64,000 bases of DNA from Alphaproteobacteria bacterium (GTDB taxonomy: Bacteria; Pseudomonadota; Alphaproteobacteria; Bin95). The position numbers and the translations under genes were made by a program. Positions 41,714 to 60,778 of this stretch are shown in pieces. Position 1 is the stretch's first letter. Each line of letters begins with the position of its first letter. The notes under the pieces are model-generated. The model was not told where the DNA came from. It searched no databases and saw only the letters and a list, made by a program, of their open reading frames with translations. Where the stretch lies: assembly GCA_964291285.2 (NCBI GenBank), contig OZ219786.1, positions 288,001 through 352,000 on the forward strand. The letters are read 5' to 3'.

Positions 41714-43339
41714 ATGGGCGCCTACGACCGGGGCCTGGACCGGCAGGCGGCGAATTACGAGCCGCTGACGCCGCTTTCCTTCCTGCAACGAACAGCCTGG
41801 ATTTTCCCGGACCATCCGTCCGTCGTGCATGGCGCGCGCCGGTTTACCTGGAGCGAAACCCGCCGGCGCTGCCACAGGCTGGCGGACGCGCTCGCCCGGC
41901 GCGGCATCGGCAAGGGCGACACCGTGGCCGTCATGGCCGCGAACACGCCGGAAATGCTGGAGTGCCATTTCGGCGTGCCGATGACGGGCGCCGTGCTGAA
42001 CACGCTGAACATCCGGCTGGATGCCGCGACGATCGCCTTCATGCTTGAGCATGGCGAGGCGAAGGCGGTATTCGTCGACCGCGAATTCTCCGATACCGTC
42101 CGCCAGGCGCTGGCCGGGCTCGGGCGGGATATCCTGACGGTCGATATCGACGATCCGGAATATGACGGGCCGGGAGACCGGATCGGCAGCCTCGACTACG
42201 AAGCGCTGCTGGCGGAGGGCGACCCGGACTGCGCCTATGCGCCGCCGGCGGACGAGTGGGACGCGATCTCGCTGAACTACACCTCGGGCACGACCGGCAA
42301 CCCCAAGGGCGTGGTCTACCACCATCGCGGCGCCTGGCTGAACGCGACCGGGAACACGATGGCGTGGCAGATGCAGCTCCATCCGGTCTATCTCTGGACG
42401 CTGCCGATGTTCCACTGCAACGGCTGGTGCTTCCCCTGGACGATCACCGCCCAGGCCGGCACGCATGTCTGCCTCCGGCGCGTGGAGGCAAAAGGAATTT
42501 TCGACGCGATTGCGACCGAGGGCGTGTCGCATTTCTGCGGCGCGCCGATCGTGCTCAACATGCTGCTGCACGCGCCGGAGGAGGAGCGCCGGAGCTTCGC
42601 CCGCCGCGTCCAGGTGATGACCGCGGCCGCCCCGCCGCCGCCCTCGACGCTGGAGGGCATGGAGGCGATGGGCTTCGACATCACCCACACCTACGGCCTG
42701 ACGGAATGCTACGGCCCGGCCGTGGTGTCGGCCTGGAACGGGGACTGGGACGCGCTGCCCGGCGCCGAACGCGCGGCGATGAAGGCGCGGCAGGGCGTCC
42801 GCTACCCGGTGCTCGAAGGCCTCACCGTCATGGACCCCGAAACGATGGCCGAGACGCCCCGCGACGGGGAGACCATCGGCGAGGTGATGATGCGCGGCAA
42901 TGTCGTGATGAAGGGCTATCTCAAGAACGGGGACGCCAGCGCGGAAGCGTTCGCCGGCGGCTGGTTCCACACCGGCGACCTCGGCGTCATGCACGAGGAC
43001 GGCTATATCGCGCTCAAGGACCGCTCCAAGGACATCATTATCTCGGGCGGGGAGAACATCTCGTCCGTCGAGGTGGAACAGGTCCTCTACCGGCACCCGG
43101 CGGTGCTCGAAGCCGCGGTCGTGGCGAAGCCGGACGAGAAATGGGGCGAGACCCCCTGCGCCTTCGTCGAGACGCTTTCCGGCGCAGAGCCGACGGAAGC
43201 GGAGGTCATCGCCTTCTGCCGGGACAATATGGCCCGTTTCAAGGCTCCGCGCCGCGTCGTCTTCGGCCCCCTGCCCAAGACCTCCACCGGCAAGGTGCAG
43301 AAATTCGTGCTCCGCGAGCGGGCCCGCGACCTGGAGTGA
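41714..43339 (+). CDS. Acyl-CoA synthetase (AMP-forming)
   Basis: YTSGTTGNPKG, YGLTE, FHTGD, DRSKDIIISGGEN, PKTSTGK. Confidence 0.93.
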   Translation: MGAYDRGLDRQAANYEPLTPLSFLQRTAWIFPDHPSVVHGARRFTWSETRRRCHRLADALARRGIGKGDTVAVMAANTPEMLECHFGVPMTGAVLNTLNIRLDAATIAFMLEHGEAKAVFVDREFSDTVRQALAGLGRDILTVDIDDPEYDGPGDRIGSLDYEALLAEGDPDCAYAPPADEWDAISLNYTSGTTGNPKGVVYHHRGAWLNATGNTMAWQMQLHPVYLWTLPMFHCNGWCFPWTITAQAGTHVCLRRVEAKGIFDAIATEGVSHFCGAPIVLNMLLHAPEEERRSFARRVQVMTAAAPPPPSTLEGMEAMGFDITHTYGLTECYGPAVVSAWNGDWDALPGAERAAMKARQGVRYPVLEGLTVMDPETMAETPRDGETIGEVMMRGNVVMKGYLKNGDASAEAFAGGWFHTGDLGVMHEDGYIALKDRSKDIIISGGENISSVEVEQVLYRHPAVLEAAVVAKPDEKWGETPCAFVETLSGAEPTEAEVIAFCRDNMARFKAPRRVVFGPLPKTSTGKVQKFVLRERARDLE

Positions 43340-43516
43340 GGGCCGGCGGGCCCCGAATGACACATCTGCGAGTTCGCCCGCGAACATTCTGGCGGCTGCC
43401 TGTTTCCTGCGCCGGCGCACCGGAGCAGTGTCCTTCCAGGCCGGGCCGATTCCGTCACCACCGCCCCGGCTTGCACGGCCGGGATTCATGAAATCCAAGA
43501 ATTTTCATTTTTTGTT

Positions 43517-43557
43517 CCTGATATCGCTTGACATCAGGGAAAATATGCTGATATAAG
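43517..43557 (+). promoter_or_regulatory. Sigma70-like promoter with overlapping palindrome
   Basis: TTGACA (43528-43533), 18 nt, TATAAG (43552-43557), preceded by an AT-rich tract. CCTGAT-N10-ATCAGG (43517-43538) spans the -35. Confidence 0.6.
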
Positions 43558-43625
43558 GCCCGCAGAAGCGGTGTCCGAAGCCGTTTCTCCGGCGCCGCCA
43601 TGGCCGGGCGGCGCCATGTTCGAAA

Positions 43626-43748
43626 ACCCCCTGAGAAACCGACGGGAGACGTGCGCCCGCCGCCTCGCGCGCGCAATCAGGCGTGCGAACCGCGCCGGCG
43701 CCGACGCGCGGGCCCGCCCGCCCGCGAAACGCGCGCGGCAAAGGGTCC
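43626..43748 (+). repeat. Conserved GC-rich leader, copy A (candidate structured RNA)
   Basis: Blocks cccctgagaaac, gacgggagacgtgcgccc, gcgcaatcaggcg.gcgaaccgcgccggcgccgacgc and aagggtcc recur reverse-complemented at 56242-56378. Confidence 0.85.
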
Positions 43749-43776
43749 GCCGCTCCCGGACCGGAAGGAGACATGG

Positions 43777-44379
43777 ATGACCGCAACCGACCCCCGTCCC
43801 GCACTGGCGGCGGCGCTCGCCGCAAAGCTCGCGCCCGCCGCCGAAGCCCTCGCCGCTGCCTATGCCGAAGACCTGAACCCGGAGCCCCCGCCCCCCGACG
43901 ACCGCGCCCGCGCCGAATGCCACCGCGCCGCACGCGCCCAGCTCGACCACCTGCACAAGCTCCTCGCCCTGCTCGACTGGGCCGGCGCCCACCTGCCCGA
44001 ACCGCCCGCCCCGGAACCCGAAGAAGAGCCGTGGGAGCCGCCGCCCCCGGAAGAGGACGATTACGACGGCAGCGAGGACGAGTTCCACTTCCACAGCGAG
44101 GTCTATGTCGGCAGCCAGGAGACCCCTGAGTTCCGCGCCTGGTATGCCGAGCAGGAGCGCCGCTTCGGACCGCTCGTCCCCGACGAGGCCGACTATGACG
44201 GCAGCGAGGACGAATACCACCACGGGCGGCGCAAATATGTCGGCAAGCTCAGGACGCCCGAGTTCTACGCATGGCTCGAACGGCTGGACCGCCGCGAAGC
44301 CGAAGAGGAACGCCAGGAGGAGGAAGCCGAAGCCCGCGCCGCACTGGCACGCACAGGCGGACACGGCGGCGGACCATGA
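43777..44379 (+). CDS. Acidic hypothetical protein with two ~44-aa internal repeats (200 aa)
   Basis: AAGGAG RBS at 43765-43770. Repeats DYDGSEDEF...YVG...TPEFRAW and DYDGSEDEY...YVG...TPEFYAW. The stop lies in the first CATGACA. Confidence 0.7.
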   Translation: MTATDPRPALAAALAAKLAPAAEALAAAYAEDLNPEPPPPDDRARAECHRAARAQLDHLHKLLALLDWAGAHLPEPPAPEPEEEPWEPPPPEEDDYDGSEDEFHFHSEVYVGSQETPEFRAWYAEQERRFGPLVPDEADYDGSEDEYHHGRRKYVGKLRTPEFYAWLERLDRREAEEERQEEEAEARAALARTGGHGGGP

Positions 44380-44432
44380 CAAAACATGACATTTCCCCAG
44401 CGCCGCATGACAAAACATGACACTTCATGACA
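44375..44432 (+). repeat. Five phased CATGACA heptamers, copy A
   Basis: Starts at 44375, 44385, 44406, 44416 and 44426 (spacing 10/21/10/10). Confidence 0.92.
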
Positions 44433-44464
44433 CTCCGCTGGAGCGGGCCGCACACCCGGCGGCG

Positions 44465-45280
44465 TCATTCCCGGCGTTCGCCCCGCAACGCCCGGGCGAG
44501 AGCGCAAAAATCCTCGACCGTCAGTTCCTCGGGGCGGAGCGTGTCGTCCAGGCCCGCGCGGGCGGGGAGACCGCCGAGCGTGCGGCGGAGCATCTTTCGC
44601 CGGCCGCCGAAAGCGCGCGCCGTAACCTCCTCCAGGTCGGACACCACGGCCGGCGCCGGCGACGGACGCGGCATCAGCGAGACCACGCTGGAGGCCACCT
44701 TCGGCGGCGGCGCGAAGGCGCCGGGCGGCAGGTCGAAACAGCGGCGGACCTCGGCGCGCCACTGGGCAAGGACGGACAGCCGTCCCCGGGCCTTGCCGCC
44801 CGGCGGCGCCAGCAGGCGGTTCGCGACCTCCTTCTGGAACATGAGGGTCATGGACTCGATCCCGGCCGGCCGGCGCAGCCAGCCGACCAGCAGCGGTGTC
44901 GCAATGTTGTATGGCAGATTGGCTACGATCTTGATCGGCGCGGGGCCGAGCGCGGTCACGTCCACCTCAAGCGCGTCGGCTGCCAGCACCCGGAGCCGTC
45001 CCTCGCCGGCCGCCGCCAGTTCCGCCAGCGCCTCCACGCAGCGGGCGTCGCGCTCGACCGCAACGATCCGCTCGGCGCCGGCCTCCAGCAGCGCGCGCGT
45101 CAGACCGCCGGGCCCGGGTCCGATCTCGACCGCCGTCCGGCCCGCCAACGGACCCGCCGCGCGGGCGATCCGGTCAGCGATGCCGGGATCGAGCAGGAAA
45201 TGCTGGCCGAGCGCGCGGCGGGCGCCCAGTCTGTACCGGCGGATCAGGTCCTGCGGGCGCGGCAGCTTGCCGTCAGACAC
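44465..45280 (-). CDS. rsmA: 16S rRNA m6,2A dimethyltransferase
   Basis: LGQHFL, EIGPGPGGLT, ANLPYNI, MFQKEVA, PPPKVAS. Confidence 0.95.
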   Translation of the reverse strand: MSDGKLPRPQDLIRRYRLGARRALGQHFLLDPGIADRIARAAGPLAGRTAVEIGPGPGGLTRALLEAGAERIVAVERDARCVEALAELAAAGEGRLRVLAADALEVDVTALGPAPIKIVANLPYNIATPLLVGWLRRPAGIESMTLMFQKEVANRLLAPPGGKARGRLSVLAQWRAEVRRCFDLPPGAFAPPPKVASSVVSLMPRPSPAPAVVSDLEEVTARAFGGRRKMLRRTLGGLPARAGLDDTLRPEELTVEDFCALARALRGERRE

Positions 45281-56188: not shown

Positions 56189-56241
56189 ACGGTACCTCCA
56201 TCGTGTTCCGTTCTCCCCGCCGCCGGCCTGCCCGGCAGGAG

Positions 56242-56378
56242 GGACCCTTTTCCGCGCGTATCGCGGGCGCGCGCGGGCGGGCGTCGGCGCCGGCGCGGTT
56301 CGCGCGCCTGATTGCGCCTGCGCGCGCGAGGCCCATGCGCAGGGCGCACGTCTCCCGTCCGTTTCTCAGGGGTCTTTT
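56242..56378 (-). repeat. Conserved GC-rich leader, copy B
   Basis: Reverse-complement homologue of 43626-43748. Confidence 0.85.
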
Positions 56379-56430
56379 CGCGCCGGCGCGAAGCGGCCCT
56401 GCAGATGCCGCTTCCGTTGCCCCATATTAG

Positions 56431-58444
56431 CCCGACTTCCGCAACTCGGCTTGAGAATCGACTGATTTGACGGTTTTCCGGCGCGAGAAGTGTCGGATTT
56501 CGGTGCAGTACCTCTCGGGACCGGCTTGTAGTGCCGACCTACCCCCTTGATCGGGCTGGCGAAGATCCGGACGCTGCGCTGATGTTCGTGCGCTGCAAGA
56601 GACGCTTCAAGGACGGCAAGGAGCACCGCTACTGGAGCGTTGTGGAGAACGTCCGGGTCCACGGCGGTCGGGTTGTTCAGCGTCAGGTGCTCTATCTCGG
56701 GGAGATCAACGACAGCCAGCGAGCGGCGTGGTGCCGCTCGATCGAGGTGGTGGAGGGCAAGTCGCGATCACGGCAGATGGCGCTGTTTCCCGAGGACCGG
56801 GAGGCGCCGGCGCTGACTTGCGAAGTGGTGAAGATCGACCTCTCGCAGGTGGCGCTTCACGACCCGCGCCAGTGGGGGGCGTGCTGGCTGGCGCTGTCCT
56901 TGTGGGACCGCCTGGACCTGGACCGCTTCTGGGAAGAGCGGCTGCCGGCGAGCCGGCAAGGCACGCGGTGGCTGGACATCCTGAAGATCCAGGTCTGCTA
57001 CCGGCTGATCGACCCGGGCAGCGAGTGGCGCCTTCACCGTCACTGGTATGAGCACAGCGCGCTTCGCGATCTTCTGGGTGGCGAGCGGGCGATCGCCGAC
57101 GACACACTCTATCGCTGTCTCGACAAGCTGCTGGCGCACAAGCAGGGCTTCTTCTCGTTTCTGCGCGACCGCTGGGCGACGCTGTTCGAGGCGCGCTTCG
57201 ACGTGCTGCTCTACGACCTGACCTCGACCTACTTCGAGAGCGATCCGCCGTTCGATGACAAGCGCCGCTTCGGCTACAGCCGGGACAAGCGGCCCGACTG
57301 CGTGCAGGTGGTGATCGCCCTGATCGTTACGCCGCAGGGCTTTCCGCTGGCCTATGAGGTGATGCCGGGCAACACCTCCGACGACACCACGCTGGCGGCG
57401 TTCCTCAAGAAGATCGAGGATCAGTATGGCCGCTCCGAGCGGGTGTGGATCATGGACCGCGGCATCCCCACCGAGGAGACGCTGGCCGCGATGCGCGAGG
57501 GCGAGGCGCCGGTGCGCTACCTGGTGGGCACGCCCAAGGGCCGGCTGACGCGGCTCGAGAAGGTGTTCCTGGGCCTGCCCTGGCAGGAGGTGCGCCAGTC
57601 CGTGACTGTCAAGCTTCTGGTCGAGGATGGCGAGCTCTACGTCCTGGTGCGCAGCGAGGGGCGGCAGGTGAAGGAACGCGGCATGCGCCGGCGCCGGCTG
57701 AAGAGGCTGTGGCGTCGATTGGCCGAGTTGCAAGGGCAGTCGAACAGCCGGGATCAGTTGTTGCTCAAGCTCGGCGCCGCCAGGAAGGAGGCCGGCCGGG
57801 CCTGGAGCCTGGTCGACATCACCGTGCCCGGGACCGACAGCGAACTCGCCGCCAACGGCTTCTCATTCCGCCTGCAGCGCGACCGGCTGCGCCAGGTCCG
57901 CCGCCGCGAGGGCCGTTACCTGCTGCGATCCAACATGGTCGCCGAAGACCCCGCCACGCTGTGGCATCTGTACATGCAGCTCGTCGAGATCGAGCAGGCG
58001 TTCAAGGAACTCAAGCACGACCTCGCGATCCGCCCCATCTTCCATCAGCGCCAAGAGCGCATCGAGGCGCATATCTTCGTCTCGTTCATCGCCTACTGCC
58101 TGCTGGTGACCCTGAAGAACCTCGCCCGGCCGCGCGCCCCGGGCCTCACCCCACGCGCCATCCTTGAGGCCTTCGCCACCATCCAGATGGTGGACGTCCA
58201 TCTGCCAACCACCGACGGCCGGCACCTCGTCCTGCCGCGCCACACCCGGCCGAACAAGGAGCACGAGCTACTGCTGCAACAGCTCGGCATGACCTGGCCG
58301 CAGCAACCCGCACCCCGGATCTCCGCCTGACGGCACACGGCGCCGCCTCTCCGTTCGCCGCCTTGTAGTGCCGACCCTCGGGGAGACGATCAAGGCTATT
58401 CAATGAGTTAGCATCCTCATGACCCCCGAGTTGCGGAAGTCGGG
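56431..58444 (+). mobile_element. IS1634 family insertion sequence, 2014 bp
   Basis: Perfect 19-bp IR cccgacttccgcaactcgg. TTAG target duplication at 56427-56430 and 58445-58448. Subterminal direct repeat cttgtagtgccgacc at 56525-56539 and 58362-58376. Confidence 0.93.
56582..58330 (+). CDS. IS1634 family DDE transposase
   Basis: KDGKEHRYWSVVE, LLYDLTSTYFE, GYSRDKRPD, MDRGI, IEQAFKELK, RPIFHQ...RIEAHIF. Confidence 0.93.
   Translation: MFVRCKRRFKDGKEHRYWSVVENVRVHGGRVVQRQVLYLGEINDSQRAAWCRSIEVVEGKSRSRQMALFPEDREAPALTCEVVKIDLSQVALHDPRQWGACWLALSLWDRLDLDRFWEERLPASRQGTRWLDILKIQVCYRLIDPGSEWRLHRHWYEHSALRDLLGGERAIADDTLYRCLDKLLAHKQGFFSFLRDRWATLFEARFDVLLYDLTSTYFESDPPFDDKRRFGYSRDKRPDCVQVVIALIVTPQGFPLAYEVMPGNTSDDTTLAAFLKKIEDQYGRSERVWIMDRGIPTEETLAAMREGEAPVRYLVGTPKGRLTRLEKVFLGLPWQEVRQSVTVKLLVEDGELYVLVRSEGRQVKERGMRRRRLKRLWRRLAELQGQSNSRDQLLLKLGAARKEAGRAWSLVDITVPGTDSELAANGFSFRLQRDRLRQVRRREGRYLLRSNMVAEDPATLWHLYMQLVEIEQAFKELKHDLAIRPIFHQRQERIEAHIFVSFIAYCLLVTLKNLARPRAPGLTPRAILEAFATIQMVDVHLPTTDGRHLVLPRHTRPNKEHELLLQQLGMTWPQQPAPRISA

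Positions 58445-60778
<2,334 letters not shown>

Follow-up and report, generated by a model that had tools for sequence, protein, structure and literature searches.

What are the two intergenic loci that carry the same flanking parts around unrelated open reading frames (ORFs), about 12 kb apart and on opposite strands, in the genome of an Alphaproteobacteria bacterium? Both lie in the window, the stretch of 64,000 nucleotides analysed here (contig OZ219786.1, positions 288,001 to 352,000). A preliminary description of this DNA had proposed that the two loci, copy A and copy B, belong to one family of cassettes with promoter, leader, ORF and an array of CATGACA heptamers in the same order, and had predicted many further copies. 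We found all these parts at both loci, and the prediction was borne out by 96 leaders and 122 arrays in the genome. Our analysis shows a modular unit running from promoter to stop codon, present in about 100 copies, with exchangeable cargo and concerted evolution. The best explanation is, in our opinion, a family of dispersed, self-contained expression cassettes restricted to one genus, with about 100 members in each genome, spread by recombination and each ending in a 3′ array that would be bound by a protein at the level of DNA. We give this reading a probability of roughly one half.

The genome of the window (G000) has a size of 6.13 Mb in five contigs, a GC content of 68%, and is 100% complete by marker genes. 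Iterated nhmmer searches placed the 96 copies of the leader core on all five contigs. Two or more CATGACA heptamers were counted as an array, and 96 of the 122 arrays lie on the same strand as a leader, within 1.6 kb downstream of it. The heptamer occurs 901 times versus 312 expected from base composition, and an exact 17-mer comprising two heptamers occurs 86 times, while its reversed control gave 0. Across 85 aligned 5′ ends and 83 3′ ends the cassettes, 0.4-1.5 kb in size, have a common architecture: a promoter-like region rich in AT comes first, then a stem-loop at the 5′ end with a GC-rich leader, a variable ORF and, as the fourth part, the heptamers. Thirteen leaders have no array nearby, and BLAST against two insertion sequences (IS), one of 2,014 bp and one IS3-like, explained 11 of these 13 by insertion.

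The full 5′ end could be aligned for 85 of the 96 leaders, and these carry the promoter-like region. An AT-rich block is kept across the 85 copies, and the homologous position is occupied by TTGACA or TTGCAT plus TGnTATGAT-like motifs. Among the 61 scored promoters, the −35 element reads CTTGACA in 24 and CTTGCAT in 11, and the −10 element is TGnTATGAT-like. A stem of at least 6 bp around a conserved loop is present in 55 of 87 copies from several species versus 10 of 87 shuffles, and its variants are compensatory (AGCGGC/GCCGCT, GCCGGC/GCCGGT, GGCGGC/GCCGCC, CGAAGT/ACTTCG). Beyond this hairpin the leader is conserved as primary sequence, judging from an alignment of 84 sequences of several species with 18 invariant and 52 nearly invariant columns. 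Its conserved core of about 120 nt corresponds to the leader of about 125 nt described earlier, but the whole untranslated leader is longer, about 215 nt in copy A.

Several simpler roles were rejected. A coding function of the leader does not agree with paralogues that have no start codon and with varying gap lengths between the conserved blocks. It is also not an obligate leader of the downstream gene: the neighbours are co-directional in 41 cases, convergent in 33 and unclear in 9, as determined by a crude gene caller based on GC at third codon positions. A motif with replication polarity was discarded, as the cassettes are distributed 50 vs 46 relative to the local GC skew. So was a direct terminal heptamer at the left end, as heptamer-like boxes were present at 12 of 61 promoters vs about 7 of 85 shuffles.

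If the cassette is modular, how is its cargo distributed among flanks, sites and species? The preliminary description had spoken of fixed flanks and exchangeable cargo, and the data agree with it. In G000, cargo group 2 (11 members) stands behind 10 different 5′ groups, defined at 85% identity or more, and 5′ group 0 is combined with five cargo groups; both sites of the window hold other cargo in relatives. The 5′ groups and cargo groups are also partly linked, which indicates duplication of whole units. The interval between the acyl-CoA synthetase gene and rsmA, where the earlier description had advised to look for empty sites, is indeed empty in G015 (40 bp), G013 (4 bp) and G003 (40 bp). 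The same site contains the same cargo in G016 and other cargo in G010, G011 (two cassettes in tandem), G008, G006 and G007. Site B is filled in G016, G010, G007 and G012 with three other cargos, among them a terminase-like gene in G012. At the site L165 the flanks are present in G016 and G010, and the cassette is absent.

The cassettes resemble each other more within the genome than their positional counterparts in other species. Between copy A and its positional orthologue in G016 the identity is 80.7%, and in the flanks 92% and 86%, while paralogues in its own genome reach 94%, 92% and 89%. The terminase-like cassette at position 389587 of contig C1 shares 79-80% identity with its counterparts at this site in G010 and G012, with flanks at 84-89%, and its paralogues in G000 are 93-97% identical at the protein level. 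G015 also holds a terminase-like cassette at this site. Cassette sites are long-lived across species, for which transposition is a poorer explanation than an exchange of cargo and gene conversion at resident sites. Both flanks of this C1 cassette (C1:386900-391100, L166) also match one stretch of about 145 bp in G016, which has no cassette there (C4:957703-960316); this indicates that the unit is surrounded by a long direct duplication or that a deletion took place between repeats.

Could these be simply resident genes of one regulon, with the heptamers and the −35 CTTGACA as operators of a single regulator, similar to each other by gene conversion only and with nothing mobile? Long-lived sites and concerted evolution would suit such a regulon, as would the near-random orientation to the neighbours (41 co-directional, 33 convergent), and the CTTGACA found in 24 of 61 promoters is one mismatch from CATGACA. 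However, site A is empty in G015, a genome with the family, the L165 site is empty in two relatives, and one and the same site contains unrelated cargo in different species. The upstream heptamer-like boxes are confined to the 12 promoters mentioned above, and operators downstream of a stop codon are unusual. Overall, a regulon of resident genes seems doubtful to us.

The second question concerns the array. Neighbouring heptamers (324 pairs) are spaced, from start to start, by 10 nt in 252 cases, by 21 nt in 22, by 32-33 nt in 20 and by 42-45 nt in 11. The spacings keep to the helical repeat of DNA, about 10.5 bp. Since 10 is not a multiple of three, three heptamers give TGA (and ATG) in every frame; TGAs in all three frames were detected in 68 of 83 arrays, and the longest ORF with a start before the array has a heptamer TGA as its stop codon in 65 of 83 cassettes. 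In a genome with 68% GC, the array is rich in A, C and U.

An IS3-like element of about 1.25 kb has been inserted exactly 6 nt past the last heptamer in eight cassettes, seven of them with a 3-bp duplication (for example, C1:689771-691020 in G000). Three further copies lie beside heptamers elsewhere, two of them directly before a first heptamer and the third 13 nt past a heptamer. In its specificity of insertion the element is similar to IS elements targeting repetitive extragenic palindromic (REP) sequences. Such precise targeting suggests a distinctive DNA site.

A serious rival explanation is that the array acts in the transcript, as a G-poor unstructured 3′ segment at the stop codon. It would be a site for a termination factor, ribonuclease or RNA-binding protein, ribosome release in any frame would control access to it, and the family would be a set of co-regulated small genes grown by ordinary duplication. 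The position of 96 of the 122 arrays on the sense strand downstream of the leader is consistent with this, as are the ORF ends within the array (65 of 83, always at TGA), its A/C/U-rich composition and the result of a simple scan, which found no intrinsic terminator after copy A. The 15-codon ORFs described below have the pattern of regulatory mini-ORFs, with fixed length, a Shine-Dalgarno (SD)-like motif and no signature of peptide selection. On the other hand, spacings that track the helical repeat are needless for RNA recognition, the IS insertion at a fixed distance from the last heptamer points to a DNA feature, and the exact heptamer is kept in 12 further species, far beyond the needs of stop codons or low G content. 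We consider the role in RNA possible, albeit with a rather small probability.

In the reading that we prefer, the cassettes would be non-autonomous, without a transposase of their own. Their spread and the swaps of cargo would proceed via homologous recombination or gene conversion, with the shared 5′ and 3′ modules serving as homology arms. The promoter, stem-loop and leader would make each unit independently expressed and would perhaps also drive the next gene if it is co-directional. The heptamer array would be a phased DNA platform for an oligomeric sequence-specific DNA-binding protein and, at the same time, the 3′ boundary of the unit; the stops in all three frames for any cargo may be its by-product or second function.

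Which protein could bind the array? The best candidate may be a small-terminase-like protein carried by the cassettes themselves. About 10 cassettes of 1.2 kb encode a protein of 329-347 aa with an N-terminal small-terminase-like helix-turn-helix (HTH) domain followed by a long acidic tail, for which no family match was obtained. The protein matches Terminase_2 (PF03592) with E values from 1e-11 to 5e-13 (45.5 and 50.4 bits at a cut-off of 26.1) and phrog_51 with E values from 1e-13 to 5e-15, and thus has the N-terminal HTH domain of phage small terminases. Matches to the solved DNA-binding domains of small terminases 4zc3, 2cmp and 3zqp were weak (E about 0.01), and the NCBI name of its relatives is 'terminase small subunit'. 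It was found in exactly those 13 of 17 genomes of the genus which have the 17-mer, and was not found in G008. The HTH motifs of SPP1-like terminases form a ring in which they are separated by about one turn of DNA, and direct repeats are present at the pac site (PMC4737164). The phasing of the heptamers by about 10.5 bp is compatible with a ring oligomer that binds the repeats of a pac site. The link of the protein to the arrays is weak.

The same protein raises the possibility that the arrays are pac-like sites, read by the terminase-like protein with the large terminase of a phage or a gene-transfer agent. Host DNA would then be packaged or transduced from about 100 starting points, or the motor of an invading phage would be diverted. 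The match of the cargo to a small-terminase family and the names of its NCBI relatives agree with such a role, as does the location of the arrays at the 3′ end of the terminase-like gene; in SPP1, the pac site with direct repeats is located at the small-terminase gene (PMC4737164). However, no match to the large-terminase families PF03237, PF03354 and PF04466 was obtained in the genome (other large-terminase families were not searched), and the sole capsid-family match is weak (28.9 bits, C2:88158-88493), so that the partner genes of a functional packaging subunit were not found. Most arrays lie in cassettes without the terminase-like gene, the cassettes have no bias relative to GC skew (50 vs 46), and IMG/VR contains no relative of the protein. 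A packaging role in this genome is unlikely, and we assign little probability to pac-like arrays as an explanation of the family.

Returning to the recombinationally spread cassettes with a protein-bound array, a number of results weigh against this reading. RNAalifold on the 84 leaders gave no consensus fold, with 7 pairs and no compensatory change, and the leader of copy A has no excess fold stability (z = −1.67). The preliminary description had called the promoter sigma70-like, and the motifs are indeed conserved in 85 copies, but a simple sigma-70 scan of 43300-44700 gave 0 promoters and 0 terminators in copy A, so that the promoter is deduced from the conservation of the −35 and extended −10-like motifs in the aligned copies. 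The distances 21, 33, 42 and 45 are also multiples of three, and it is therefore mostly the classes 10, 32 and 43 that carry the phasing argument. The orientation of the array relative to the ORF is always the same, with the ORFs ending inside, and a role at the level of RNA fits this equally well. The link between protein and array depends on one informative lineage, G008, which keeps some perfect arrays. As the terminase-like protein is itself cassette cargo, its co-occurrence with arrays is partly trivial, and the numbers of both do not scale, for G007 has 10 protein matches and only 7 exact 17-mers.

The junctions belong to the same side of the balance. The earlier suggestion that the cassettes are mobilised in trans did not gain support, as no clean junction between empty and filled sites was found: at the L165 site in G016 and G010 the flanks are present, but the intergenic DNA is not alignable. 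When 12 near-identical copies were lined up with their flanks, the similarity began near TTGTTCATGAAAT and ended about 11 nt past the last heptamer, with neither terminal inverted repeats nor target duplication. In copy A, too, no terminal inverted repeats were seen, as had been stated earlier, and its inverted pairs are weak only, at most 78% complementary over 18 nt.

Let us consider the cargo. A 15-codon ORF is present in 29 cassettes with an SD-like motif and the pattern M-P-E/G ... Y/H ... A-C-R/K-T/S; the products are polar and hydrophilic. Selection on the peptide was not detected in these ORFs: there is no third-position excess, and the entropy is 0.68, 0.75 and 0.77 at positions 1, 2 and 3. 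Their 3′ codons are invariant and end in A or T, and it is therefore the nucleotides, not the peptide, that seem to be constrained. Some arrays are followed by a promoter-less second unit with a 12-codon ORF.

Very small ORFs in repeated loci also call to mind type I toxin-antitoxin repeats, which are repeated intergenic loci with a long conserved 5′ untranslated region (UTR) and a tiny ORF, such as the long direct repeats of Escherichia coli. The cassettes could accordingly be selfish small-peptide repeats of this or another type, and their multi-copy intergenic location, long conserved 5′ UTR and very small ORF do correspond. Nevertheless, the 15-residue products are hydrophilic and without selection on the peptide, the cargo is variable and reaches 329-347 aa, and the copies are about ten times more numerous than in such repeats. 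No antisense partner was seen, and a simple scan of the opposite strand of copy A revealed no promoter-like site. This explanation is highly improbable.

The 200-aa protein of copy A represents a real, lineage-specific family with more than 160 homologues, all of them unnamed or 'hypothetical'. It has no match in Pfam or PHROGs, the best score in the ESM Atlas was 0.81, and Foldseek comparison of its AlphaFold2 model with PDB folds gave no match (best E about 1). The protein contains two internal repeats, encoded at 44046-44088 and 44178-44220 of the window and 84% identical at the DNA level. In the model, with a mean confidence score (pLDDT) of 82, an N-terminal helical hairpin is followed by the repeats, each predicted as a beta-hairpin plus a helix. 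Homologues in other genomes terminate in different heptamer readings.

Recombinases were searched for in 10 larger cargo ORFs against Pfam and PHROGs, and none was found. The earlier statement that the loci encode no recombinase is correct for this cargo, but the span of copy B does hold a transposase, that of an unrelated IS. The preliminary description had also advised a search for an autonomous copy, and none was seen: a master copy was sought among the 13 long or array-less cassettes, of which 11 were explained by IS insertions, the ORFs of the other two not being scanned. Elsewhere G000 contains about 100 tyrosine-recombinase-like loci, often two or three adjacent and in repeated copies (for example, C2:209879-211262, C3:1344188-1345571 and C5:428151-429801). 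Elements bearing such recombinases could act on the cassettes in trans.

How does the family compare with known systems? By their defining features, it is not one of the Rfam families, miniature inverted-repeat transposable elements (MITEs), integron cassettes or type I toxin repeats, and it fits mobile promoters in part. In the way it works, it comes closest to gene cassettes in dispersed form. As in integrons, variable and mostly unknown ORFs are bounded by a short conserved sequence of recombination type, tandem units occur (the promoter-less second cassettes after an array), and cargo differs between strains at one place. In contrast to integrons, each unit has its own promoter and leader, the units are scattered over about 100 sites instead of forming one array, and the 3′ module consists of direct heptamers and not of an imperfect palindrome of attC type. 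The best match to the integron integrase TIGR02249 reached 72 bits at a cut-off of 265, and about 100 weaker matches are generic tyrosine recombinases.

REP sequences and the bacterial interspersed mosaic elements (BIMEs) built on them, MITEs and Correia-type repeats are high-copy intergenic families restricted to a lineage and targeted by IS elements. The cassettes, too, form a high-copy intergenic family of one lineage and are a preferred target of IS elements, but they have no terminal inverted repeats, palindromic unit or target duplication, and their units of 0.4-1.5 kb include a promoter and ORFs. Putative mobile promoters (PMC3575422) are highly similar promoter-bearing sequences upstream of unrelated genes within a genome. 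Here, 5′ groups of at least 85% identity stand before several cargo groups and different neighbouring genes, as mobile promoters do. In contrast to mobile promoters, the unit includes a leader of about 200 nt, an ORF and a conserved 3′ array, and is independent of the orientation of the next gene. With the terS-pac module of SPP1-like phages (PMC4737164), the family shares a small-terminase-type HTH protein beside direct repeats phased by about one turn. In contrast to that module, the repeats are at the 3′ end of the gene and not at its 5′ end, about 110 of the 122 arrays have no gene of this type beside them, the tail of the protein is long and acidic, and no large terminase of the three families searched is present.

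A bolder version of our reading sees the family as a chromosome-wide, dispersed counterpart of the integron. About 100 fixed expression sockets, each with a promoter, a stabilising 5′ hairpin, a leader and an all-frame stop, would swap cargo among themselves. The reader of the 3′ boundary, with its helically phased heptamers, would be a small-terminase-like protein that forms rings, has been domesticated and is carried by the family itself. We put this forward as speculative and rather unlikely. If true, a phage packaging protein would have acquired a novel use, and the bacterium would express and shuffle its small genes in a new manner. If the reading that we prefer holds, a genus of uncultured marine, largely sponge-associated Alphaproteobacteria would hold about 100 ready-made expression units trading their contents, which would be a new route to create and test small genes. 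These units would also be a strong driver of rearrangement, being about 100 homologous segments of 300 bp in both orientations and preferred targets of two IS families. Their promoter, 5′ stabiliser, leader and three-frame stop would be compact natural parts for bacteria with high GC content. The orphan small-terminase-like protein and the phased heptamers make a directly testable protein-DNA pair. For annotation, the units account for many of the small ORFs labelled 'hypothetical' and, in the metagenome assemblies of this lineage, for many contig breaks.

The distribution of the family across taxa is narrow. Of the 16 other species of the genus, 12 have the exact 17-mer, with between 7 and 100 copies each, and it was absent from all 24 genomes of other genera. 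When the genomes of 185,579 species were scanned for it, the matches listed were only metagenome-assembled genomes labelled Alphaproteobacteria, Rhodospirillaceae or Rhodospirillales bacterium. G008 does not have the 17-mer, yet it has at least 40 leader matches and partly degenerate heptamers, with 23 phased heptamer pairs versus 252 in G000 and 319 in G015. The family was not found in G001, G003 and G013. The preliminary description had named a catalogued Rfam entry as a result that would speak against a new family; no match at gathering score was obtained in the whole window, and the region 43300-44600 gave only three chance-level matches with E of 2-7, far below gathering. The leader had no match in plasmid and phage collections. 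In the papers searched, the exact 17-mer string was not found; the family was not searched under other names. IMG/VR contains 10 contigs with three phased heptamers, which are low-GC tandem repeats without a leader or related gene. In the loci L180, L183 and L184 the heptamers have the same 10-bp spacing, and one contig has the identical 17-mer. The heptamers of these low-GC viral contigs probably arose independently.

In the window, copy A lies between an AMP-binding (acyl-CoA-synthetase-like) gene at 41714-43339 and rsmA at 44465-45280 on the opposite strand. Its similarity to paralogous cassettes starts, according to BLAST, within 43473-43501 and ends at 44449. On the plus strand, the AT-rich upstream region, where this homology begins, occupies 43486-43527 and is followed by the putative promoter at 43528-43557, with TTGACA at 43528-43533, an 18-nt spacer and TATAAG at 43552-43557. 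The 5′ stem-loop AGAAGCGG / CCGTTTCT, with a conserved TCC-containing loop, is located at 43564-43588, and the GC-rich leader (5′ UTR) at 43589-43776, with its core defined by nhmmer at 43623-43737. The SD-like motif GGAAGGAG at 43764-43771 lies upstream of the cargo ORF (43777-44379). This ORF encodes the acidic 200-aa protein with its two internal repeats, and its stop codon, TGA, is part of heptamer 1. The five heptamers of the array (44375-44432) start at 44375, 44385, 44406, 44416 and 44426, that is, with spacings of 10, 21, 10 and 10, and catgacactcc closes the array at 44436. The homology with paralogues stops at the end of the 3′ tail CTCCGCTGGAGCGGGCC (44433-44449), which resembles the end of the IS3-like element inserted elsewhere 6 nt past the last heptamer.

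Copy B is located on the minus strand upstream of a MetE-like gene, and its leader aligns with that of copy A in long identical blocks. Its AT-rich upstream region with the −35 TTGCAT (58469-58464) lies at 58445-58510 and is severed from the remaining cassette by the unrelated 2,014-bp IS at 56431-58444. This IS, on the plus strand, has inverted ends and a transposase ORF of 599 aa (56531-58330) matching DDE_Tnp_1 with E of 1.9e-13; its target duplication CTAA is read at 58448-58445 and 56430-56427 of the minus strand. The −10 TAATAT (56429-56424), the 5′ stem-loop and the leader with its core at 56377-56249 are within 56189-56430. The IS landed between −35 and −10, and thus the promoter of copy B is broken; an uninterrupted promoter is visible in its intact paralogue at position 1723064 of contig C3. 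The 31-codon ORF (56188-56093) continues across the first three heptamers and has its stop codon, a TGA, in heptamer 4, and the five heptamers extend from 56138 to 56080 with spacings of 10, 21, 10 and 11.

Some further observations concern the surroundings of the cassettes. Three arrays are followed, 85-103 nt on, by a co-directional tRNA gene for Glu, Gly or His (C1:361416-361654, C1:641569-641813 and C3:708711-708947), and the tRNA-Glu arrangement was found again in G008 (locus L159). Some cassettes may supply the promoter of the tRNA gene. A separate GC-rich palindromic repeat (GTCACCCCGG ... CCGGGG) flanks many cassettes, and in the G008 loci L143-L163 it lies directly upstream of nearly every promoter. 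BLAST with the 2,014-bp IS found 49 genomic matches of more than 1 kb, and the copies listed within cassettes are 100% identical. The IS is present in 11 cassettes (copy B and 10 more), although cassettes cover only about 1% of the genome, and probably targets rare A/T-rich tetranucleotides found in them.

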